Source of the DNA: a phage
Sequence record: PZ295659.1
Strand: one strand, 5' to 3'
DNA: 64,000 bases
The position numbers were made by a program, and so were the translations under genes. The notes under the pieces are model-generated. The model ran no database searches. It was not told the origin of the DNA and was given only the letters and a program-made list of their open reading frames with translations. This document shows positions 3,690 to 48,420 of this stretch, piece after piece (the first letter of the stretch is position 1; each line of letters opens with the position of its first letter).

Positions 3690-4346
3690 ATGGCCGATTT
3701 AAAAGCCGGAAGTACAGTTGGTGGTTCCGTCATATGGCATCAAGGCAATTTTCCTTTAATGCCAGCTGGCGACGACATTCTATATAAAACATTTAAATTA
3801 TACACTGAATATAACAAGCCAAAAGCGGCTGATAACGATTTCGTATCTAAAGCAAATGGCGGGACATATCTCAAAAAGGTAATCTTTAACGAAGGTGTTG
3901 CAGTCAAAACAGCAGATGACCAAACGAATGGTATTTTTTCTGGTGGTGGTGACGCCGCGACATTCGACCAAACAAACATGGATATTGTTTCGTGGTATGG
4001 TATTGGGTTTAAAACATCTCAAGGTACAGGTGAAAGAACTGTTGTAATTGATACTCGCACCGGTAATATAAGTTCTAAAGGCGTTATTGAAGCATCTCAA
4101 TTCAGAGCCACAACGTTAGCACCTTTAAATAATTACGACCTTACTCGCAAAGATTATGTTGATAGTCAAATAAATACAGTTAATGCTAATGCAAACAGTC
4201 GTGTACTCCGTTCAGGAGATACGATGACCGGCGCGCTAACCGCCCCAAATTTTTTCTCACAGAATCCTGCATCTCAACCATCGCATGTTCCACGATTTGA
4301 CCAAATTGTTATTAAGGATTCTGTTCAAGATTTCGGCTATTATTAA
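3690..4346 (+). CDS. 36: Long tail fibre distal connector gp36
   Basis: 218 aa; MADLKAGSTVGGSVIWHQGNFPL... and C-terminal ...SQPSHVPRFDQIVIKDSVQDFGYY match remembered T4 gp36. Confidence 0.9.
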   Translation: MADLKAGSTVGGSVIWHQGNFPLMPAGDDILYKTFKLYTEYNKPKAADNDFVSKANGGTYLKKVIFNEGVAVKTADDQTNGIFSGGGDAATFDQTNMDIVSWYGIGFKTSQGTGERTVVIDTRTGNISSKGVIEASQFRATTLAPLNNYDLTRKDYVDSQINTVNANANSRVLRSGDTMTGALTAPNFFSQNPASQPSHVPRFDQIVIKDSVQDFGYY

Positions 4347-37855: not shown

Positions 37856-39020
37856 CGAAATCTTCCATTTCGTCAAGGTCGTTTTCTATATCTGCTGCAG
37901 ACGGAGCATCAGAAGTTTTAACCGGAACTTTAGTTGTTGCTTTGCAATTAATAAGGTCGTTAACAGCGTCATCAACTTCTTTAATAGAAGAGATAGCACC
38001 TAGTTTATATTTAGTTTCAATTGCATCTCGGAAAGGTTTGTGTTTAAACAACGGTCCCCAGAATTCTACACAATCAGTAGCTTTAGCACGCCATGATTTT
38101 TCTTCACGAATCATTTCACCTGTTTCTTCGTCAAGGAATTCACGAGCATACCAACCAGCTTTAGGCTTAACTACAAAACCAATTTCAGTTGCCATTTCTA
38201 ACAAGCCACTGAATGGGTCAATACCACCATCAAAATTAACTGTGATCGGAAAAGTAGATTTCTCTTTAACCGTACGAGATTTTTCTGCTTTCAACGTGAA
38301 GTCATAACCGGTCAATTCTGTACCTTCTTTAACCTGACGTTTAGAGATAAAGAATACAGTGTTAGCAGAGTAAAGAATACCTGTACCACCACCCATAATC
38401 TCTTTAGGATACAATCCGCCAATTTCCATTGCGGTATGGTTAATTGCAACACACGGAATATCTTTAATAGTCAGATACGGGGTCACAATGCGGAACAGAG
38501 ATTTAAGTGCCTTAGCACGAGACATATCACCTACAACTTTCTCGTTCAATGCATCTTCGGTTTCTTTCTTAGATGCAGTATTACCGATTGAATCGATAAA
38601 GATAATAACTTTATCACCGCGTTCAATCGCGTCAAGCTGATTAGTCATATCAACTTTAAGTTGTTCGACAGATTGAATCGGAGTATGAACTACACGGTCT
38701 AAATCAACACCCATTGAACGAAAATAAGATTCTGAAGCACCAAATTCTGAATCATAGAACAAACAAATTGCATCTTTATATTTCTTCATATATGCTGCAA
38801 CCATGGTCAGACCAAACAACGTTTTAAAGTGTTTAGAAGGAGCAGCAAAAATAGTTAAGCCTGATTGCAACCCGGCATTCAGTGCACCACCTAATGCAAT
38901 ATTCAACATCGGAATACGAGTAGGGACTTCATCACGATTATTAAACAGCTTAGACTTAGTCAAGTCTGCAGTCATTTTAGAAGTAGAAGCTTTAATCAGA
39001 CGAGATTTTAAATCAGACAT
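37848..39020 (-). CDS. uvsX: Recombinase UvsX (RecA-like)
   Basis: 390 aa; MSDLKSRLIKASTSKMTADLTKSKLFNNRDEVPTRIPMLNIALGG...; matches remembered T4/RB69 UvsX. Confidence 0.9.
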   Translation of the reverse strand: MSDLKSRLIKASTSKMTADLTKSKLFNNRDEVPTRIPMLNIALGGALNAGLQSGLTIFAAPSKHFKTLFGLTMVAAYMKKYKDAICLFYDSEFGASESYFRSMGVDLDRVVHTPIQSVEQLKVDMTNQLDAIERGDKVIIFIDSIGNTASKKETEDALNEKVVGDMSRAKALKSLFRIVTPYLTIKDIPCVAINHTAMEIGGLYPKEIMGGGTGILYSANTVFFISKRQVKEGTELTGYDFTLKAEKSRTVKEKSTFPITVNFDGGIDPFSGLLEMATEIGFVVKPKAGWYAREFLDEETGEMIREEKSWRAKATDCVEFWGPLFKHKPFRDAIETKYKLGAISSIKEVDDAVNDLINCKATTKVPVKTSDAPSAADIENDLDEMEDFDE

Positions 39021-39120
39021 TGTATTTTTTCCATAGGCATCATTATATTTTACTCATGTTTAAAAGATAAGACGATTATATACTAAGGGTTATACAGCAT
39101 TTAAAACTTTAAACAGGCTC

Positions 39121-39669
39121 TTAACGAGCCCATTTGATAATTTCTGTAATCAAATTATTACGTTCGCTTGCATTAAATCCTATAACTTTGTTAGCACCAT
39201 CATGATTAAGTAATTGATACGTTTGGATTTCGTTATGAATTGCAAACTCTTCAAAATATGAAATGACTGTATTAAAACCGAACGAAGACAAAGTAATAAG
39301 GTCGTCTTCAAAACTTTCAGTCATTTCGTTACGTGTTAAAATAATTGTGAACACATCATGGTTTTGGCAAAGACGAACATAATCCTGTTCATAAACGTCA
39401 AGAACCGAGTCCGCATCTTGTCGAATACGTCCATAAACCCAGTTACTAATATATCCACGGTCTAACAGATAAATCTTAGTAGGGTCTAAATAATTCAACA
39501 TCGTTTCGAAACAGCCAACTTCATTTCGAGACTTAACATCGAAACGTCCATCAACTGTTCGTTTAGGGAAATCAATCTTTACATATCTTTCGCTAATTTC
39601 CATTATGTCATTAATGAAAGTTGTTTTACCAGCATTATCCGGGCCATCTACTAAAATAATTTTAGCCAT
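39121..39669 (-). CDS. P-loop NTPase, nucleoside/nucleotide kinase-like
   Basis: 182 aa; Walker A ILVDGPDNAGKTTF; no direct T4 counterpart at this position. Confidence 0.5.
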   Translation of the reverse strand: MAKIILVDGPDNAGKTTFINDIMEISERYVKIDFPKRTVDGRFDVKSRNEVGCFETMLNYLDPTKIYLLDRGYISNWVYGRIRQDADSVLDVYEQDYVRLCQNHDVFTIILTRNEMTESFEDDLITLSSFGFNTVISYFEEFAIHNEIQTYQLLNHDGANKVIGFNASERNNLITEIIKWAR

Positions 39670-39670
39670 T

Positions 39671-40570
39671 TTATTCCTCGATTACGACATCTTCATATTT
39701 AGGTATATTATACGGCGAAGAAATTAAAGCATTAAAGTAGATGAACTCACCAAGACCTGGATGGAATACTTCTTCAGGATTTTCGAAATATTGAATCTTC
39801 GGTCGTCCTTTAAGAATTTGATAGTACTCAGTTTTAGTTGGGTTAAAAATTCGAATCAGCGCTTCTTCAGGATACTTATTTCTGTCGAAGCTATTATTTG
39901 GATCGGTTATATAAAGCGGTTGGCCTAATTGAATTGCACATTCAACCACTTGTTCAAAACGATAACACGGGTCACTAATTCGAAATGGATGAAAAATACC
40001 ATCTAGATGAATAGGAGCCAAATCACCTACAAGACGCTGCATGATGGAAGGACGTATAACTTTCTGCGTTACGATAATCTTATTACCATCTGCACCTGCG
40101 TTAACCAGCACTTCTTTTTGACGTTCATTCAACACAGTAGTTTGAAGTGAACGATTAACCGACAACATGTCGGTTTTTAAGAATTCGTCAATATAAAAAC
40201 GTGGTTTATTAGGGTCCGCAGTGATATTGAAATTGAATTCCACATCAAAAGCGCCGTCATATCCAGTGATATCTGTGATTAGAAAATCACAATCATAATA
40301 AGCAATTAATGAATCAACCACAAATTCATTTTCAGACCAGAAATATTTACGAGTGTTATATGCGTTATCTTTATACCATAATGGAACAAACTTAAATTCT
40401 GGGAAAAGACGTTCACATTCTTTAATATCAGATGCATTACGTGGATATGTAATCACATCACCCGGATTAGCACGGTGCAAATGAAGTTGGAAGTTGCCAT
40501 CCTTAAGGATAGCATACTGTCCAGTTTCATAAGACCGCATACTCAAGATAGGTACGCGGAAAATAGCCAT
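39671..40570 (-). CDS. Protein of unknown function at the beta-glucosyltransferase locus; candidate DNA sugar transferase
   Basis: 299 aa between uvsX and gp42; no recognisable similarity to remembered T4 beta-gt; no motifs identified. Confidence 0.35.
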   Translation of the reverse strand: MAIFRVPILSMRSYETGQYAILKDGNFQLHLHRANPGDVITYPRNASDIKECERLFPEFKFVPLWYKDNAYNTRKYFWSENEFVVDSLIAYYDCDFLITDITGYDGAFDVEFNFNITADPNKPRFYIDEFLKTDMLSVNRSLQTTVLNERQKEVLVNAGADGNKIIVTQKVIRPSIMQRLVGDLAPIHLDGIFHPFRISDPCYRFEQVVECAIQLGQPLYITDPNNSFDRNKYPEEALIRIFNPTKTEYYQILKGRPKIQYFENPEEVFHPGLGEFIYFNALISSPYNIPKYEDVVIEE

Positions 40571-41286
40571 TAGTCAAGGAATCCTTTAACATAATCAAAA
40601 TCACGTTCAAACACATGGGCACTTACCATGGTATGAGTATAATCACCAACTTCTACACCACATTCGTTAGCGATATAATGAAGTAATTTTCCTTGGAGAT
40701 AAAAATCCAACTGCATAACAACAGCACAGTTCTGAGAACGCATATGACAGTGGGTATAAAGCTTACCATCACGAATATAATAAGTCACTGAGTCAGTACA
40801 TGGATATTCAAGTGTTTCGTCCGAATCAAGCAAAGCCTGATCTGAACTTTCTAGAATTTGGAACACAACTCTTCGGGAGTTAGGCTTCTCTTTAAGTTCT
40901 TTTAGAAGAGCTGGTAATTGAGCCGCAATGCGAGGACCGTAGAAAGTGTTGAAGTTTGCAGGCAAAGCGTCTGATTTAGGTTTAGAAATAAATTTAGCGA
41001 CATTAGGATATGCCTTAAATGCTTCTTCTGCATCAGTACCACCAGAAATCATAAACTTCCAGAAGTCTTCGGCATATTCATAAGAGATGCGATTAATACG
41101 TGGATCGGTCATTTTGAATGATGAAGGGGTATCAACAACTACTGTCATAGACCCAATTTCATTACAACGTCCAATACGAGAATCAGTAACGAACTGTGGA
41201 TTTTCTAAAATTTCACGATTAACAGCTTTAAATGCGGATTGAAAATCTGCGGCTTTAATATATTTCATTGTGTTATGTTTTCCCAT
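40570..41286 (-). CDS. 42: dCMP hydroxymethylase (thymidylate synthase family)
   Basis: 238 aa; PCTDSVTYYIRDGKLYTHCHMRSQN aligns with the T4 gp42 active-site region CTNTVQYLIRD; SD gaggt; N-terminus diverged from my recollection of T4. Confidence 0.65.
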   Translation of the reverse strand: MGKHNTMKYIKAADFQSAFKAVNREILENPQFVTDSRIGRCNEIGSMTVVVDTPSSFKMTDPRINRISYEYAEDFWKFMISGGTDAEEAFKAYPNVAKFISKPKSDALPANFNTFYGPRIAAQLPALLKELKEKPNSRRVVFQILESSDQALLDSDETLEYPCTDSVTYYIRDGKLYTHCHMRSQNCAVVMQLDFYLQGKLLHYIANECGVEVGDYTHTMVSAHVFERDFDYVKGFLD

Positions 41287-41304
41287 GTTTACCTCAATAC
41301 AGTT

Positions 41305-41328
41305 ATTATATACTCAATTCATAAAGCT
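41305..41328 (-). promoter_or_regulatory. Candidate MotA-dependent middle promoter for gene 42
   Basis: Minus-strand AGCTTTA (one mismatch to the TGCTTTA MotA box) 11 nt upstream of TATAAT. Confidence 0.35.
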
Positions 41329-41406
41329 TATTTGAATTTCTTAGCAATGTTGATATAACGTAAAGCTTCAGCATCGATACTTCCAAGAACACTATGAAGA
41401 AATGCA

Positions 41407-41568
41407 TCAGCGTAGTATTCTAGTTGAACAGGTTTCTTTAATCACTTTAGCCGCTTTAGTTTCAAACAGGCCCATAAGGGCCTTTTTAAGAATTTGTTCG
41501 TTGCTGTTAATTTTCGTAGTCAAAATCTCTTCATTAAGTTGGTGGTTAAAAGTTTTTCTAGAAATCAT
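41407..41568 (-). CDS. Possible small protein (53 aa) coupled by ATGA to the Cys-rich gene
   Basis: ATG overlaps the upstream TGA; region also contains a GGCCC/GGGCC hairpin, so coding status is uncertain. Confidence 0.3.
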   Translation of the reverse strand: MISRKTFNHQLNEEILTTKINSNEQILKKALMGLFETKAAKVIKETCSTRILR

Positions 41569-42725
41569 TCCGGGTACCTCAAAGCGTCGTCAGAGTTAGT
41601 TATATCAATAATAGATATAGAGTTTTCTGCTAACCCATTTTTAGATAACTGACGTTTATAATATCTTTCACAATATGTACACGTCGTCCCGCAGATTTCA
41701 TTAGCACAATCGAAATCTGGATGTCTGAACCACCTTTTTTCTAAAAAGCCATCTAACAAAGAGGTTTCAATATTTACCGTATGTGAAAACTCGGTCTCAT
41801 TTTCAAGAGTGAAAATAGTCTCTAAAGGCTTCCACAATTCCAACAAATTACCTTCAAATTTTTCAGAAGCATAAGCTTCAAGAACTTTCAAAATGTAGTC
41901 TGTGCTACCTGTACGTCCTGAAACTTTGAATTGAGTGATACCAATATCATTATAAAGTTTCAAATCTTGAGGACGAACAAAACGAGTTCTCAACCAGTTA
42001 AATGGGTCTGTATCACGAGCTTTAATACAGTGTTGCATTGGATAGCCATTTAAGGATTTGGCATCATCTACTGTAACGTCGGTGCTATGGAAAATATAGC
42101 AAGAGTCACGATAGCTACAATGTGTTGTATACCCTTTACCAGCATTAGAACAGAACTCATTTACAAGAACTTCAAATATTATATTGTTCTTATTGCAAAA
42201 CTCTGCTGCACGCTTCAGGAAAGAAACTGAACGGTTCTTATGAATTCCACAGCAGACCTTTTTGATATTATATTGGTCATGCAAGTATTTGATTTGAGTT
42301 ACAGCATCGACATGTAGAATTGTTGAAACTTCAATCTCAATGTCTTTATTAACTTCACGAACAATTTCCATAACAACAGGGTTAGCGATAGTAATACGCC
42401 ATACGCCTATTGACCAAAGATACTGAACATAATCCTGAATAGCTTTCTTCTTCCACTCAACTAGTTCTCTTTTTGAACCAGGATTTATCGTGTTGAGTGT
42501 ATAGTTAAAGCAAATACCTAATTCGTTACAACGTTTAACATAATCTTCTAACATCTTTTTGTCAACGTCAGGAAGCCTAAAATCAGGTCTGGCTGCTACA
42601 AAAGCCATTTCTCTTGTAGAGCCGTATACTTCATTTATCAAGCTATTAGGATAAGTTTTATTGAGCTCTACGATTTTATCAAGAAGAGCTAAATCAAAAT
42701 TCGTTCCGATTTTAAAAGTATTCAT
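41565..42725 (-). CDS. Cys-rich protein of unknown function, possible metal or Fe-S binding, in the sugar-nucleotide module
   Basis: 386 aa; C-terminal CANEICGTTCTYC (C-x4-C-x3-C-x2-C) plus further Cys pairs; weak resemblance to U32-type Cys-rich segments not confirmed. Confidence 0.5.
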   Translation of the reverse strand: MNTFKIGTNFDLALLDKIVELNKTYPNSLINEVYGSTREMAFVAARPDFRLPDVDKKMLEDYVKRCNELGICFNYTLNTINPGSKRELVEWKKKAIQDYVQYLWSIGVWRITIANPVVMEIVREVNKDIEIEVSTILHVDAVTQIKYLHDQYNIKKVCCGIHKNRSVSFLKRAAEFCNKNNIIFEVLVNEFCSNAGKGYTTHCSYRDSCYIFHSTDVTVDDAKSLNGYPMQHCIKARDTDPFNWLRTRFVRPQDLKLYNDIGITQFKVSGRTGSTDYILKVLEAYASEKFEGNLLELWKPLETIFTLENETEFSHTVNIETSLLDGFLEKRWFRHPDFDCANEICGTTCTYCERYYKRQLSKNGLAENSISIIDITNSDDALRYPE

Positions 42726-42779
42726 TTTTACATCTCGCGTTAATTGATGCGATGGTTTTTGCAGGTCTTACTTAAATTA

Positions 42780-43181
42780 TTATAGATTCGGTTTATATGA
42801 TTTAAATGTTTCGAATTCGCCTTTATTCATAAGAGCTTTGAATTCGTCAGGACGCATAGCTTTGTCGTCGATAATCCAATCATATACTGGTTTATGTGTT
42901 AGCAAATTATGGTACTTCAAGCCAATGTTTGCCAAGTTCTGAATCAGACTTGGGAGAATGTCAATTGCTATACGACCAGGACCTACTGACTTCATACCGC
43001 GAGCAGTGTAAAGCGTTATTGTATGCCCTGCATCATACAGGGCATTAATGGCAGACACCATTTCGACGTCTGGTTTGAAGTTCACGTAATCACGATTGTT
43101 ATTCCACTCGGTTATACAATCATCGACATCAAAACAAAGATTAAGCATGTTTTCTACACGGTGCATTAGATTCGTTCCCAT
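42780..43181 (-). CDS. HAD-superfamily phosphatase (small, capless)
   Basis: 133 aa; motif I-like FDVDDCIT, then LYTAR and KP...WIIDDKA; an alternative ATG at 43166 overlaps the upstream stop as TAATG. Confidence 0.55.
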   Translation of the reverse strand: MGTNLMHRVENMLNLCFDVDDCITEWNNNRDYVNFKPDVEMVSAINALYDAGHTITLYTARGMKSVGPGRIAIDILPSLIQNLANIGLKYHNLLTHKPVYDWIIDDKAMRPDEFKALMNKGEFETFKSYKPNL

Positions 43182-44851
43182 TGATGAGTGATATCGCCAC
43201 CGATTGGACGATAGGAAACACCAGTTTCTTTATCAGTTAGTACCCATTTACCAGGATTTTTTGTAATCAGAGTAGCCGTTACAGGTTCTGCTACGTCATA
43301 ACTAATAGAGCCGTCTTGAAGTACACGGCCCATGTTACGTAATTGCTTAGTCAGAAGTTCCATACCTTTATAATATGCGGCTACCGCTTTAAGTGGATTA
43401 TTCTTGAAATAACCACCTAATGCAATCCAGATAATTGCTACAGCCAAATGATGATACTCGTTAAACGAACTCATCTTTCCATATTTGTAAACTAATGGAT
43501 TGATGTTAATAGTCACATTACAAGTTGTTTCATCAATAGTAAACTGACCCCAGGTCGGATTAGCGTTGAATTCATCATAACCTGAAACAGCGTAAAGCAC
43601 TTTAGCTTCATCATACAATTTTGGCCCGTAAATCTTGGTTTCACCAAAATATCCACGAGGGTCGATAAACTTGACTTCACCATTATCAGTAATCATAGTA
43701 TTACTGAAGTTCGGGTCACCATGAATAACAGAGTACTGTCCCTGAGAACGGTTATGATAACGAATAAGGTGTTCTAAAGCTTGTTTCAACATTGGCTTCA
43801 GACGTCCAATCTTAGTGTAGTTCACATGTGTGATTTTACCAAATGAATCAATCAATGGTTGAATACTTTCACAACGATCAATAACTTTCGTATAGAATTC
43901 TTTAGTGAAATCACGACGAACAGTTTCAGGACTTACAAAATAAGTGTCTGTGCTGAATTTCAGTGCATCTAAAATTGCATCAACAATTTGTGGACGAGCA
44001 AGACTCGATTTGGATTTAATATATTCAAATGCCGGCTTACCTTTAATGCGTTCCATTTCAAAGTTATTTTCATTAACAGAAACTAACTGAGGAACTGAAT
44101 CTGATTTCACTTTAAGATACCATGAAATCTCATCTTTCTGAAGAGCTCGACCCTGTTCGGTTAATGCGAATTTAGTTACAGTTTCTTCACCAATTTCAAC
44201 TGCATTAAAACTACGATTAAGTTCACGAACTTCATGAGCTTTTTCAAGTTTAGGCATATCACCTAAATCAATTAGATTCATAAGCTCTGATTTATTGAAT
44301 GCGCTGCCGTAAAGGAATTCTACGAAATCACGCCCTTTGCAGTATTCATGAATTTCCTCATCAGTAGAACCCATATAGAATTCCCAGTCTTTGAACTGAT
44401 AAATTCCTACAACATTACCACCTGTTGAACCTACGTTAGTGATATTTTCACCGTCGAAATTATATCGACATTCGTCACCCTTAACATAGATTGCGTTAAC
44501 ATTCCAAGACCATGAACCAAAATCAGGAATAATATCGCACCAGTTAACAATTACATTATGGCTGTCTAAATCTTTGTGTAATTTAGCAAGAGCATAAGCA
44601 GAACCATACGCTTCATCAACTGTACGAATAGTCACATTGAACCCTTCTTGCTCACAATAAGCTCGAACAGTTTCAGCAAATTTTGAATGAACTACTACAA
44701 TAATTTCATCTGCGCCAAGGTCAGAATAAATTGTATACAAATTGCTCAGAATAGTGTCTTGTTTATAGTTAACAAGCACCTTAGGAATATGATGCGTTAT
44801 TGGATACAAACGAGTTGCCAGTCCAGCACCAAGAATAACAGCTTTTTTCAT
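43166..44851 (-). CDS. Bifunctional sugar-1-phosphate nucleotidyltransferase / APH-fold sugar kinase fusion
   Basis: 561 aa; N-terminal AVILGAGLATRLYP (RmlA-type G-x-G-T-R-L), C-terminal VIHGDPNFSNTMI...FIDPRG (Brenner and D-x-x-G motifs of choline/aminoglycoside kinase fold). Confidence 0.65.
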   Translation of the reverse strand: MKKAVILGAGLATRLYPITHHIPKVLVNYKQDTILSNLYTIYSDLGADEIIVVVHSKFAETVRAYCEQEGFNVTIRTVDEAYGSAYALAKLHKDLDSHNVIVNWCDIIPDFGSWSWNVNAIYVKGDECRYNFDGENITNVGSTGGNVVGIYQFKDWEFYMGSTDEEIHEYCKGRDFVEFLYGSAFNKSELMNLIDLGDMPKLEKAHEVRELNRSFNAVEIGEETVTKFALTEQGRALQKDEISWYLKVKSDSVPQLVSVNENNFEMERIKGKPAFEYIKSKSSLARPQIVDAILDALKFSTDTYFVSPETVRRDFTKEFYTKVIDRCESIQPLIDSFGKITHVNYTKIGRLKPMLKQALEHLIRYHNRSQGQYSVIHGDPNFSNTMITDNGEVKFIDPRGYFGETKIYGPKLYDEAKVLYAVSGYDEFNANPTWGQFTIDETTCNVTININPLVYKYGKMSSFNEYHHLAVAIIWIALGGYFKNNPLKAVAAYYKGMELLTKQLRNMGRVLQDGSISYDVAEPVTATLITKNPGKWVLTDKETGVSYRPIGGDITHQWERI

Positions 44852-44892
44852 GTTGTGGTCCTCATTGGTAAGTAGGAGTATTGTACACTATT

Positions 44893-45036
44893 CTAGTTAA
44901 AGCATTCATACTTTGCTTGTAGTCCAATCATAATCCATCCGATTACAAGTGTTGGAATCATTACTGGAGCCGTTAAGCTCCAGTAGATAGTCATGACAAG
45001 CATCAATAGTAAAAGTCCTATTGTTATTGCTTTCAT
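44893..45036 (-). CDS. Small hydrophobic peptide (47 aa) coupled by ATGA to the isomerase gene
   Basis: MKAITIGLLLLMLVMTIYWSLTAPVMIPTLVIGWIMIGL...; ATG overlaps the TGA of the SIS gene. Confidence 0.4.
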   Translation of the reverse strand: MKAITIGLLLLMLVMTIYWSLTAPVMIPTLVIGWIMIGLQAKYECFN

Positions 45037-45668
45037 TGTTCGCCTCGTAACATGGCACCTAGTGCACCGCCAGGGTGGAACTTAAGGAAGTCATTAGAGG
45101 TAAATCCACGTTCAGACGAAAGGTTGATAGCAAACGTATCGATAAGCGCTAACAACAATGTAGTGGACATGGTCGGAGCCAGAGAATTCTCATCAACCTC
45201 TACTGCGATGCCTGTACAGAACGTATAATCAAAAAGAGCTTCATATTCTTGTGGAATGTCTGGGTTACAATGCAACAGAATCTGTTTGACGTTCGGACGA
45301 ATCATTTTAAGATGCTTAGCCACGCCTATCATTTCTTCAGTTTTACCAGAACGACTAATATGAATCAACACATCATTAGGCGCAATGAATCCTGCATCAC
45401 CGTGAGAATAATGCCCGGTGTTCAAGTACATACTAGGGATACCGAGTGAAGCAAATGTTTCAGAAGCTTTAGTTGCAATATTAGCATTCTTACCAACACC
45501 TGTAATAATTACTCGGCTTTCATAATTACTAAGCCCTGGGCGTCGAAGAGTTTCTAGAATAGCATTATAACGAGCAGGGTTTTGACTAATTACTTTGGCC
45601 ATAGCGGCCAAAGAAGAAGCTTGTTTTATGATTGCGTCAATAGCGATAGTAATAGGAGTAGTTTTCAT
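45033..45668 (-). CDS. SIS-domain sugar-phosphate isomerase, KdsD/GutQ-like (arabinose-5-phosphate isomerase type) without CBS domains
   Basis: 211 aa; ITGVGKNANIATKASETFASLGIPSMYLNTGHYSHGDAGFIAPNDVLIHISRSGKT parallels the KdsD SIS core GMGKSGHIG...HGDLG...ISNSGES. Confidence 0.7.
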   Translation of the reverse strand: MKTTPITIAIDAIIKQASSLAAMAKVISQNPARYNAILETLRRPGLSNYESRVIITGVGKNANIATKASETFASLGIPSMYLNTGHYSHGDAGFIAPNDVLIHISRSGKTEEMIGVAKHLKMIRPNVKQILLHCNPDIPQEYEALFDYTFCTGIAVEVDENSLAPTMSTTLLLALIDTFAINLSSERGFTSNDFLKFHPGGALGAMLRGEQ

Positions 45669-45708
45669 ATTTCTCTCATTTAATTAGTTTACCGTCCATG
45701 ACATTATA

Positions 45709-48420
45709 TCAAAAATCGAACATATCGAAAAGAGATGCTTTCTTCTCGTAATCGAGTTTCGCTGCTGATGTGAATCCTTCAAGTGGTTTAATAAATGTCT
45801 TCTCAAGGAGAACAGTGTAGTCCATCCAATGAAGTACGTCGTCTTTAATTAAATCTGTGATTTCAGTACCAGAAGGCCATGCGATACATTTATCACCGAA
45901 TGGGTTTCCTTCACGTAAAGGCAGAACATATACTTTTTCACCTTCTACAACTTGCGGTGCATCGATATTACCTTTGATGGCCCGGTTATATGTCAGAATT
46001 CCACGAATATGGAACGGACATTTAGGACCAGGGAATCCACCTACGTCATATTTAGCGATGTTATTCGCAGAAGATACCGACGCGATGCTAATATAATTCA
46101 ATTGACGGAATTCTTTTTCAAACTCTTTAAAATATTCTTGTAATGATTCTTCACCTTCTTGAAGCATACGACGAATACATTCTTTAAGAGCTTTCTGTAC
46201 GGCTTTAGGAGTCGAAGATTTCTGCGTCTCTAGACCCATGATTTTGAGTTTAGGCTCAGCGTAACGAGTACCTTCCATATCCCACACGTTTAATGCATAA
46301 CGTTTCTTACCAGTCCAGAATCCACCAATACCTTTAGAACCAAGTGGAGGCCCAGCGATAGCTTCTCGGTCCATGAACATTAAGTGTTGTTTATTGTTCA
46401 TGTATTCACACATTTCACGGAAACCTCTATCAATAGCTGGTTCCATACGTTCACGTGCAAACTTATCTAAGAAGTCTACCCAGTGGTTGGTATCACGGAA
46501 TTTAGATTCACCAACCTTATCGATAATTTTATCAGCAGATACGTAAATAGAGTCTGTATCACCATAAAGAACGAAAGCTTCACCTTCTGTACCACAAACT
46601 TCGTTCAGATATTCATTAACTTTACGTTCAATCCACTGTAAAGCCATTTGCCCAAATGTTGTGATTGCAGTAGCATTACGCAAATCATAATAACGGAACC
46701 AAACGTTGCCAAGTGCACCATAAAGTGAGTTGATAAGCAATTTACGGTTAATTTGAGCAGTCATACCTGCAACTTCGGTACGTTGAGCTCTAAACAACAT
46801 TTCATTAAGAGATTTAGCAGACAACTTTTTAATCTTTTCTTTAATCTCATCACTGAAGTCGAAACGATAATCAACATCTAATGGTTCGTCAACAGAAAGA
46901 TTAGGATTATGCAATGCCTCTTTAATTATTTCACCGTTACGTTGAGCTGCAAGCATGTAACCTTTATGTTCTTTACGTTGATTAAAGACCTTAGTGATTT
47001 CAGTTGGAACTACACCATCACGGTCTTTATAATACATCATGCCGTTAGGAGAGCAACTGTACACATCTGAAGGACGTTCAGCAACAGCGTTAATATAATC
47101 ATGCAATGGAGCTACTTTAAACGTTCCTGCTATTGTTTCCGGGCTAATATTCACTTGGCGAATAATACTTGGATACAGAGATGTAAGGTCGAAACTCATT
47201 ACATATTTGTATCGATTTGGAATAGGTTCCTTAACAAAAGCACCAGGATAAGGTTGAACCGGGTGAGAACGACCTTGTGGAATCACCTTGTTCTGCTCTT
47301 TAAGGCTATTAAAAATAATAGCATCCCATGTTTTAATTGGGCTAAACACAGATTGAATCTGTATCTTAGCATAATAACCCATGTCCAAACTCAAGTTGAT
47401 GAACTGACGCTTAGCATCAATTTGCAATACACGATACACGTCGATAATGTTATAAGAAATATATCGTTGGTGATTGCTTTCACGAAGCTTAGAAATAGGG
47501 CCGTCATATTTCAGTTTACCAACGTTCAATTCAAATTCTGAAATGTAATCCAGAGAATATGACGGCTGATTGGTAAAAGAGAATTTTTTGTAAAGGTCAA
47601 TGTAATCAAGAACAGAGATACCGAACAATGTAATGATTTCACGAGAACCATACATGTTTTCGATAACTTTAACACGAGTTTTACGATGTGGTGATAAACG
47701 TTTCGCAGTAGATTCGCCAAAAATATTCTTGATTCGGTTATACACATATGGAATATCAAATGACTCAACGTTCCATCCAGTCAAAATGACAGGAGTTTTC
47801 TGTTGCCAGAAGTTGAGATATTCCATCAACAATTCTTTTTCGTTATCGAACGGCATATAAATGATTTTATCGATAATTTCGGATGGAACTTCATCACCGC
47901 CTTGTTCTTGAAGCTTGGCCGCAATTTCGATAGACCATTCTTCTACATTACCATATGGAGAATTCAATAGATCAAATACGTAGAACCTGTCGTCAATTGA
48001 GTCATAATGGGTGATAGCATCAATCGGATGTTTTGCTTGTGACGGCTCAGGGAACCCATCCGGGGATGTTACTTCGATGTCGAAGTTAGCCACACGAATT
48101 TTTGTATGGTCGTATTTGATTTCATAGTTATAAGTGTCAGACAAATACGCCAATTTGAAATCGTCCATGCCAAGTGCTTCAAGTCCGATATCTTCCATGC
48201 GTTTAATCCATTGGGAGGCATCACGCATATTGGCGAACAACTTACGAGTACACGGCTTACCATAGATATCAAAATATTTCGTGGCCTGACTTTCAGGACA
48301 ATGTGCAAACAATGATGGTTTATACTCTACTTCACGAGTACGTTCACGGCCGTTAGAATCGATGTAACGTTCAAAAATTGAATCACCAATCTGTTCAACC
48401 GTTAAGTAAAATTCTTTCAT
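45709..48420 (-). CDS. 43: DNA polymerase gp43 (family B), RB69-type
   Basis: 903 aa; MKEFYLTVEQIGDSIFERYIDSNGRERTREVEYKPSLF... matches my recollection of RB69 gp43; exonuclease and polymerase motifs (YGDTDS) present. Confidence 0.95.
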   Translation of the reverse strand: MKEFYLTVEQIGDSIFERYIDSNGRERTREVEYKPSLFAHCPESQATKYFDIYGKPCTRKLFANMRDASQWIKRMEDIGLEALGMDDFKLAYLSDTYNYEIKYDHTKIRVANFDIEVTSPDGFPEPSQAKHPIDAITHYDSIDDRFYVFDLLNSPYGNVEEWSIEIAAKLQEQGGDEVPSEIIDKIIYMPFDNEKELLMEYLNFWQQKTPVILTGWNVESFDIPYVYNRIKNIFGESTAKRLSPHRKTRVKVIENMYGSREIITLFGISVLDYIDLYKKFSFTNQPSYSLDYISEFELNVGKLKYDGPISKLRESNHQRYISYNIIDVYRVLQIDAKRQFINLSLDMGYYAKIQIQSVFSPIKTWDAIIFNSLKEQNKVIPQGRSHPVQPYPGAFVKEPIPNRYKYVMSFDLTSLYPSIIRQVNISPETIAGTFKVAPLHDYINAVAERPSDVYSCSPNGMMYYKDRDGVVPTEITKVFNQRKEHKGYMLAAQRNGEIIKEALHNPNLSVDEPLDVDYRFDFSDEIKEKIKKLSAKSLNEMLFRAQRTEVAGMTAQINRKLLINSLYGALGNVWFRYYDLRNATAITTFGQMALQWIERKVNEYLNEVCGTEGEAFVLYGDTDSIYVSADKIIDKVGESKFRDTNHWVDFLDKFARERMEPAIDRGFREMCEYMNNKQHLMFMDREAIAGPPLGSKGIGGFWTGKKRYALNVWDMEGTRYAEPKLKIMGLETQKSSTPKAVQKALKECIRRMLQEGEESLQEYFKEFEKEFRQLNYISIASVSSANNIAKYDVGGFPGPKCPFHIRGILTYNRAIKGNIDAPQVVEGEKVYVLPLREGNPFGDKCIAWPSGTEITDLIKDDVLHWMDYTVLLEKTFIKPLEGFTSAAKLDYEKKASLFDMFDF

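Follow-up and report, generated by a model that had tools for sequence, protein, structure and literature searches.

The gene at 42780..43166 on the minus strand of the window, meaning here the whole 64,000-nucleotide stretch of phage DNA that was analysed (sequence record PZ295659.1), very probably encodes AfhF, the phosphatase in the pathway by which RB69-like phages modify their DNA with arabinosyl-5-hydroxycytosine. The maximal ORF spans 42780..43181 (-) and comprises 133 aa when counted from its first ATG, and the start of the gene lies most probably at 43166 (128 aa) rather than at 43181. This is a genuine gene rather than a chance ORF, because its 128-aa product matches a protein of solved structure at 100% identity and because a database search returned 48 homologue clusters. 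The identity to that protein, PDB 9IQW, runs over the full length and includes Cys17; the entry, released 2025-07-16, is listed by Foldseek as 'phage HY126 encoded D-arabinose 1,5-diphosphate phosphatase AfhF'. AfhF is thus already known: its gene has been characterised, the protein crystallised and the pathway published. The sequence identity, the HAD motifs and fold, the gene order and the stop/start overlap come from the present analysis, and the substrate and Mg2+ dependence from the literature and the PDB title. What the window adds is small: comparative support for a TAATG start, evidence that the Cys in motif I is clade-specific and activity-compatible, and the finding that the name 'phosphoheptose isomerase' is wrong.

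The window originates from an RB69-like T4-type coliphage (Mosigvirus). RB69-type DNA polymerase, UvsX and gp41 helicase, a T4-like phage set, are among the neighbouring genes in the ORF list, and megablast of positions 39000-46000 returned PHB12 (98.6% identity), HY126 (98.0%) and RB69 (97.8%), all of them Mosigvirus or RB69-like coliphages. The gene under study and its neighbours are arranged as follows:

39671..40570, minus strand: 299-aa predicted DNA arabinosyltransferase, corresponding to RB69 gp46:47
40570..41286, minus strand: thymidylate-synthase homologue by domain matches, orthologue of RB69 gp48
41565..42725, minus strand: 386-aa peptidase-U32-family protein, immediately downstream of the phosphatase (Pfam PF01136 at 6.3e-11 and a weak UbiU match in NCBIfam)
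42780..43166, minus strand: afhF-type gene (RB69 gp51 orthologue), 128-aa capless HAD phosphatase plus stop codon
43166..44851, minus strand: afhE-type gene, 561 aa, with N-terminal sugar-1-P nucleotidyltransferase and C-terminal APH/choline-kinase-like kinase domains
45033..45668, minus strand: KpsF/GutQ-type arabinose-5-phosphate isomerase with a SIS domain only, orthologue of RB69 gp55 (TIGR00393, 2.2e-32; KdsD, 1.2e-30)

In the 561-aa AfhE-type protein the NTP_transferase match covers residues 3-100 and weak kinase-family matches fall at 308-409, while Pfam and NCBIfam searches of the 299-aa putative arabinosyltransferase gave no match. Both proteins are encoded in the window by single unbroken ORFs; the RB69 reference record divides the kinase-nucleotidyltransferase (ORF052c/053c) as well as the putative arabinosyltransferase (ORF046c/047c), and the unsplit ORFs seen here agree with the sequencing errors reported for RB69. 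The RB69 RefSeq record (NC_004928.1) contains the orthologue RB69p051 (L001 5281..5667), a 387-nt CDS that begins at the TAATG ATG and bears the product name 'phosphoheptose isomerase'. The HY126 record has the same 387-nt CDS, labelled hypothetical, overlapping the AfhE gene by 1 nt.

The 128-aa protein is a HAD-type phosphatase, in which motifs I-IV and a Rossmannoid alpha/beta core are present. Across an alignment of 49 sequences or clusters, the window included, D13, D15, T54, R56, K92, D100 and D101 are invariant (49/49), and the same motif residues align in the Vibrio protein 1XPJ. The motifs are encoded at these positions:

43110..43133, minus strand: HAD motif I, FDVDDCIT, with nucleophile D13, acid/base D15 and C17
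43005..43007, minus strand: HAD motif II, T54 (in LYTARG), invariant in the 49 clusters
42891..42893, minus strand: HAD motif III, K92 (in THKP), invariant in the 49 clusters
42864..42869, minus strand: HAD motif IV, acidic pair D100-D101 (in IIDDK), invariant in the 49 clusters

AlphaFold (AF2) supplied with the alignment gave a model of pLDDT 92.2, which was taken in place of the unusable single-sequence model (pLDDT 37.9). When this MSA-based model was compared with the PDB using Foldseek, 9IQW was matched at TM 0.95-0.96 and the next match was 1XPJ (E 3.5e-8, TM 0.76, 30% identity). Weaker matches (E 0.02-0.3, probability 0.9-0.99) were to the PNKP phosphatase domains of T4 and Clostridium, GmhB, HisB-N and KdsC, all capless HAD phosphatases; L-2-haloacid dehalogenase was also matched. 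An earlier note, made from the window's sequence alone, had read the gene as a small HAD phosphatase and had named structure prediction of a HAD Rossmannoid core as a check on that reading. The four invariant motifs, the confident MSA-based model, in which the core is found, and the matches to 9IQW and other HAD phosphatases all bear it out.

The fold matches also bring up the reading that the enzyme is a nucleotide or polynucleotide phosphatase, similar to 5'(3')-deoxyribonucleotidase or PNKP, that acts on nucleotides or DNA ends. Foldseek matched the PNKP phosphatase domains of T4 and Clostridium weakly (E 0.02-0.04), one homologue (P0014) is named 'Polynucleotide kinase' in one source, and the AFDB match given by Lee et al. 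is a putative 5'(3')-deoxyribonucleotidase (PMC13326640). We regard this reading as extremely unlikely, as the fold matches, at 13-17% identity, reach no further than the superfamily, the gene always lies in an operon with the sugar kinase/nucleotidyltransferase gene, and the PDB entry for the identical protein describes a sugar bisphosphate phosphatase.

Family assignment by profile places the protein near, and outside, named families. Pfam gave no match. NCBIfam returned TIGR01689, 'EcbF-BcbF capsule biosynthesis phosphatase', at 49.3 bits (E 4.3e-13) against a cutoff of 162 bits, which makes the protein a relative of that family and not a member, together with a weak HAD-IIIA match. Membership in GmhB was likewise rejected, there being no NCBIfam or Pfam model match to GmhB and a fold match only, at 14-17% identity. 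The protein matches PHROG 1238 at 1e-42, whose label is 'phosphoheptose isomerase', and homologues are named elsewhere 'capsule biosynthesis protein' or 'polynucleotide kinase'. That such database names are correct, either 'phosphoheptose isomerase' (RB69p051, PHROG 1238) or 'capsule biosynthesis protein', would be in keeping with the RefSeq product name, the PHROG 1238 description and the source names of homologues and of the PDB molecule; we give it practically no chance. Neither Pfam nor NCBIfam finds a SIS/GmhA domain in the phosphatase, and the neighbouring 211-aa protein does match SIS; the DxD...T...K...DD motifs and the HAD fold speak against an isomerase, and the TIGR01689 score (49 bits versus 162) against the capsule name. 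The isomerase name is refuted by these domain and fold tests: with no SIS domain and a HAD fold, 'phosphoheptose isomerase', as used by RefSeq and PHROG 1238 for this HAD phosphatase family, is a mis-annotation. The database names look like propagated mis-annotations or homology carry-over.

With the protein identified as AfhF, its place in the pathway can be taken from the literature. Lee et al. (NAR 2026, PMC13326640) revised the RB69 modification to mono- and di-arabinosylated 5-hydroxycytosine, equated AfhF with RB69 gp51 and AfhE with RB69 gp52:53, and reported RB69 gp48, the thymidylate-synthase homologue, as the maker of 5-hydroxy-dCMP. In the passages of their paper that cite He et al. 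(Nat Chem Biol 2026), AfhE is described as an Ara5P kinase and UDP-arabinose pyrophosphorylase and AfhF as a Mg2+-dependent phosphatase that converts Araf1,5P to Araf1P; removal of the C5 phosphate by AfhF is worded as 'by analogy, likely', the analogy being with GmhB (PMC13326640). Thomas et al. 2018 nowhere discuss ORF051c (PMC6024577).

Following the steps published for HY126, RB69 and DLP3, the phage SIS isomerase (45033..45668) would convert ribulose-5-P to arabinose-5-P, and the kinase domain of AfhE would phosphorylate C1 to give arabinofuranose 1,5-bisphosphate. The 128-aa Mg2+-dependent capless HAD phosphatase would then take one phosphate, presumably that at C5, off the bisphosphate to leave arabinofuranose-1-P, D13 being predicted to carry an aspartyl-phosphate intermediate and D15 to serve as acid/base. 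In a fourth step the nucleotidyltransferase domain of AfhE would form UDP-arabinofuranose, whose sugar the DNA arabinosyltransferases would add to 5-hydroxycytosine, the acceptor base for arabinosylation being provided by the thymidylate-synthase homologue. AfhE would in this scheme be both the maker of the phosphatase's substrate and the consumer of its product, and the AfhF step would turn the product of the kinase into the substrate for sugar activation. The logic of this pathway parallels that of GmhA, HldE-HddA, GmhB and HddC in NDP-heptose synthesis. The end product matters to the phage: in RB69-like phages arabinosylated 5-hydroxycytosine takes the place of cytosine in the DNA and guards it against restriction and other host defences.

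The phosphatase could alternatively act one step earlier, releasing free arabinose from arabinose-5-P, with phosphorylation at C1 by the kinase domain of AfhE to follow. Table 1 of Lee et al. states as much, entering RB69 gp51 and DLP3 gp81 with 'dephosphorylates Araf5p to Ara' and the kinase domain with 'phosphorylates Ara to Araf1p' (PMC13326640), and nothing computed here tells Ara-5-P from Ara-1,5-P2 as substrate. The table is, however, inconsistent with the paper's own text, which, where it cites the HY126 biochemistry, gives Araf1,5P to Araf1P (PMC13326640); the PDB depositors named the protein D-arabinose 1,5-diphosphate phosphatase, and the bisphosphate route fits the established GmhB logic for NDP-heptose. 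We accordingly judge action on arabinose-5-P to be very unlikely and retain arabinofuranose 1,5-bisphosphate as the substrate. The earlier note had proposed removal of the 5-phosphate from either arabinose-5-P or a bisphosphate intermediate. The second of these agrees with the PDB title and with the account of He et al. in Lee et al.; the first is not the reaction reported in that account.

The acceptor base may have a further source in this cluster. U32 proteins include the O2-independent hydroxylases UbiU/UbiV, RlhA and TrhP, and the 386-aa U32 protein encoded directly downstream of the phosphatase gene might provide an anaerobic route to 5-hydroxycytosine beside the O2- and flavin-dependent ThyA homologue. 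This protein is the orthologue of RB69 gp50 and occurs in about half of the related clusters, being missing from the rest. Lee et al. enter gp50 only as 'sugar or heterocycle reductase', and their text makes no mention of U32, RlhA or gp50 (PMC13326640).

The organization of the cluster is well kept among relatives. In 28/28 related T4-like loci the phosphatase gene comes immediately after the AfhE homologue, and a thymidylate-synthase-like 5-hydroxy-dCMP synthase and a putative arabinosyltransferase lie within a few kb in these 28 loci. Because this order is constant, it supports, at the level of sequence comparison, a fixed functional pairing of the kinase/nucleotidyltransferase with the phosphatase. 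The isomerase is a separate matter: it lies just upstream of AfhE in most related clusters, and ten of the 28 (L010, L012-L018, L024 and L028) have AfhE and AfhF homologues and no SIS arabinose-5-P isomerase in the fetched flanks. Phages without a nearby SIS isomerase may use the host's KdsD/GutQ or may encode the isomerase elsewhere.

More distant homologues (30-42% identity; L031-L054) have no AfhE-like gene nearby and are thus uninformative about the function of AfhF. In viral contigs that are not T4-like, they form the N-terminal domain of 355-385-aa proteins (for example L031 3980..5137 (+) and L047 4001..5068 (+)), the C-terminal ~230 aa of which have no Pfam match. A thymidylate-synthase homologue lies about 2.5 kb from the distant homologue in L031, L032 and L040, and a radical-SAM gene is present in L047. 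These distant homologues may belong to other DNA-modification pathways.

The junction between the AfhE and AfhF genes bears directly on where translation of the phosphatase begins. Three in-frame ATGs precede the HAD motif, at 43181 (MGTNL...), 43166 (MHRVEN...) and 43148 (MLNLCF...), and the first two fall in these parts of the junction:

43164..43168, minus strand: TAATG stop/start overlap of the kinase-nucleotidyltransferase and phosphatase genes, with the upstream TAA at 43168..43166, the ATG at 43166 and a 1-nt overlap
43167..43181, minus strand: 15-nt stretch before the probable start, up to the first in-frame ATG at 43181, lying within the upstream gene's 3' end

The earlier note had pointed to the TAATG overlap and offered ATG 43166 as an alternative start. 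The overlap is as it described, the TAA ending the upstream 561-aa ORF, and 43166 now has the best support of the three ATGs. We compared the junction in the window and 28 related T4-like loci; 26/29 sequences were informative, the exceptions being two loci where an upstream ORF escaped detection and a further one that departed from the motif pattern. The informative junctions are distributed as follows:

TAATG, as in the window: 17/26 sequences
ATGA or GTGA overlap: 3/26 sequences
Read-through overlap of 17 nt (L008; TAA to CAA): 1/26 sequences
Genes 55-120 nt apart: 5/26 sequences

Individual loci depart from the common arrangement in different ways. In L008 (about 3999..4017) the AfhE stop is now CAA and AfhE extends 17 nt into the phosphatase gene, and in L012 (about 3960..3985) a 66-nt spacer lies between the two genes and contains a perfect GC-rich hairpin, GAGGAGGCTTTAGCCTCCTC.

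The sequence around the candidate starts likewise favors 43166. ATG 43181 arises from Gln-Trp codons of AfhE (CAA TGG); the triplet becomes GTG (CAG TGG) in L008, L009, L011 and L027 and is missing in L007, and this ATG is probably unused. At the other end, L007, L010, L014, L015 and L017 possess the HRVEN extension and are missing the internal ATG, so that the Met of TAATG is the sole possible start there. The codons of HRVEN vary only synonymously (CGT/CGC/CGA, GAA/GAG, AAC/AAT), which indicates that it is translated. The chain deposited as 9IQW reads ...H-MHRVEN..., with the Met encoded by ATG 43166, and not MGTNL, coming straight after what is left of the tag. Shine-Dalgarno duplex energies of -4.9 kcal/mol for 43181, -4.2 for 43166 and +0.2 for 43148 do not separate the first two starts and argue solely against 43148. 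Taken together, the conservation of TAATG, the HRVEN extension, the RB69 and HY126 annotations and the crystallised construct make ATG 43166 the best-supported start.

Whether the overlap couples translation of the two genes is a related matter. An ATG overlaps 15/58 minus-strand stop codons in a crude gene set of the window, so the arrangement is ordinary for such genomes. Translational coupling of AfhE and AfhF is plausible and would be in line with the conserved overlap; a TAATG start at 43166 would permit coupled, roughly stoichiometric expression of the two proteins. A promoter scan of 42500-45100 found 9 sites where 9.5 were expected from shuffling, and thus no excess, and the promoter and terminator scan placed no site between the AfhE and AfhF genes, a result that supports only co-transcription.

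The most unusual feature of the protein itself is the cysteine in motif I. The minus-strand sequence reads ...CAATGGGAACGAATCTAATGCACCGTGTAGAAAACATGCTTAATCTTTGTTTTGATGTCGATGATTGTATAACC..., in which FDVDDCIT occupies 43133..43110 and the Cys codon TGT 43118..43116, so the motif described as atypical by the earlier note, with Cys where Thr or Val is usual, is encoded as it was read. The fifth position of motif I is Thr in 45/49 clusters and Cys in 4/49, the latter being the window, P0001, P0002 (Pectobacterium phage PM2) and P0003. Among the related viral contigs, Cys is found in L003-L007 (99-84% identity) and Thr in all others. A change from Thr to Cys at position 17 takes two nucleotide changes from any Thr codon. 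On these comparisons Cys17 is an inherited, clade-specific replacement of the canonical Thr, and neither a sequencing artefact nor a hallmark of the family. It is compatible with activity, since the crystallised protein that is named as a phosphatase carries it.

The fifth position of motif I is not catalytic as far as is known, and Cys is nearly isosteric with Thr, Ser and Val; there is no sign that Cys17 plays a special part. Because the residue adjoins the catalytic aspartates, one can conceive of the Thr-to-Cys change as functional rather than neutral, conferring redox sensitivity or a shifted substrate preference relative to the Thr-bearing orthologues, which come from Serratia, Yersinia, Acinetobacter and Proteus phages. 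We think such an effect unlikely by a wide measure.

Among known systems, the phage-encoded 3'-phosphatase domain of T4 polynucleotide kinase/phosphatase (PDB 1LTQ, 5UJ0) resembles the window's protein in being a capless HAD with a DxDxT motif from a T4-like phage and in giving a weak fold match. It differs in its low identity (12-14%), in being joined to a kinase domain in one polypeptide and in acting on nucleic-acid 3' ends. The nearest cellular relatives are Vibrio cholerae APC26283 (1XPJ) and TIGR01689, minimal HAD proteins of about 125 aa with equal motif spacing. 1XPJ is 30% identical to the 128-aa protein (phmmer E 4.9e-10), but has a canonical DLDGT motif I and carries no known substrate.

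GmhB, the D-glycero-D-manno-heptose 1,7-bisphosphate 7-phosphatase (PDB 3L8H, 2GMW, 4PNH), shares with the window's protein the capless HAD fold (Foldseek probability 0.87-0.99) and a place in a pathway that runs from isomerase to anomeric kinase, bisphosphate phosphatase and nucleotidyltransferase. In contrast to AfhF, GmhB is about 180 aa long and contains a Zn-binding loop, and its substrate is a heptose, not a pentose; with identity of 14-17%, it is a superfamily analogue of AfhF and not an orthologue. The closest system of all is AfhF of HY126 (PDB 9IQW), orthologue of RB69 gp51 and DLP3 gp81, to which the window's protein corresponds in its identical 128-aa sequence, its HAD fold and its position after AfhE. 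No difference separates the two proteins, and the window's phage is a separate isolate, its 7-kb cluster being 98.0% identical in DNA to that of HY126.
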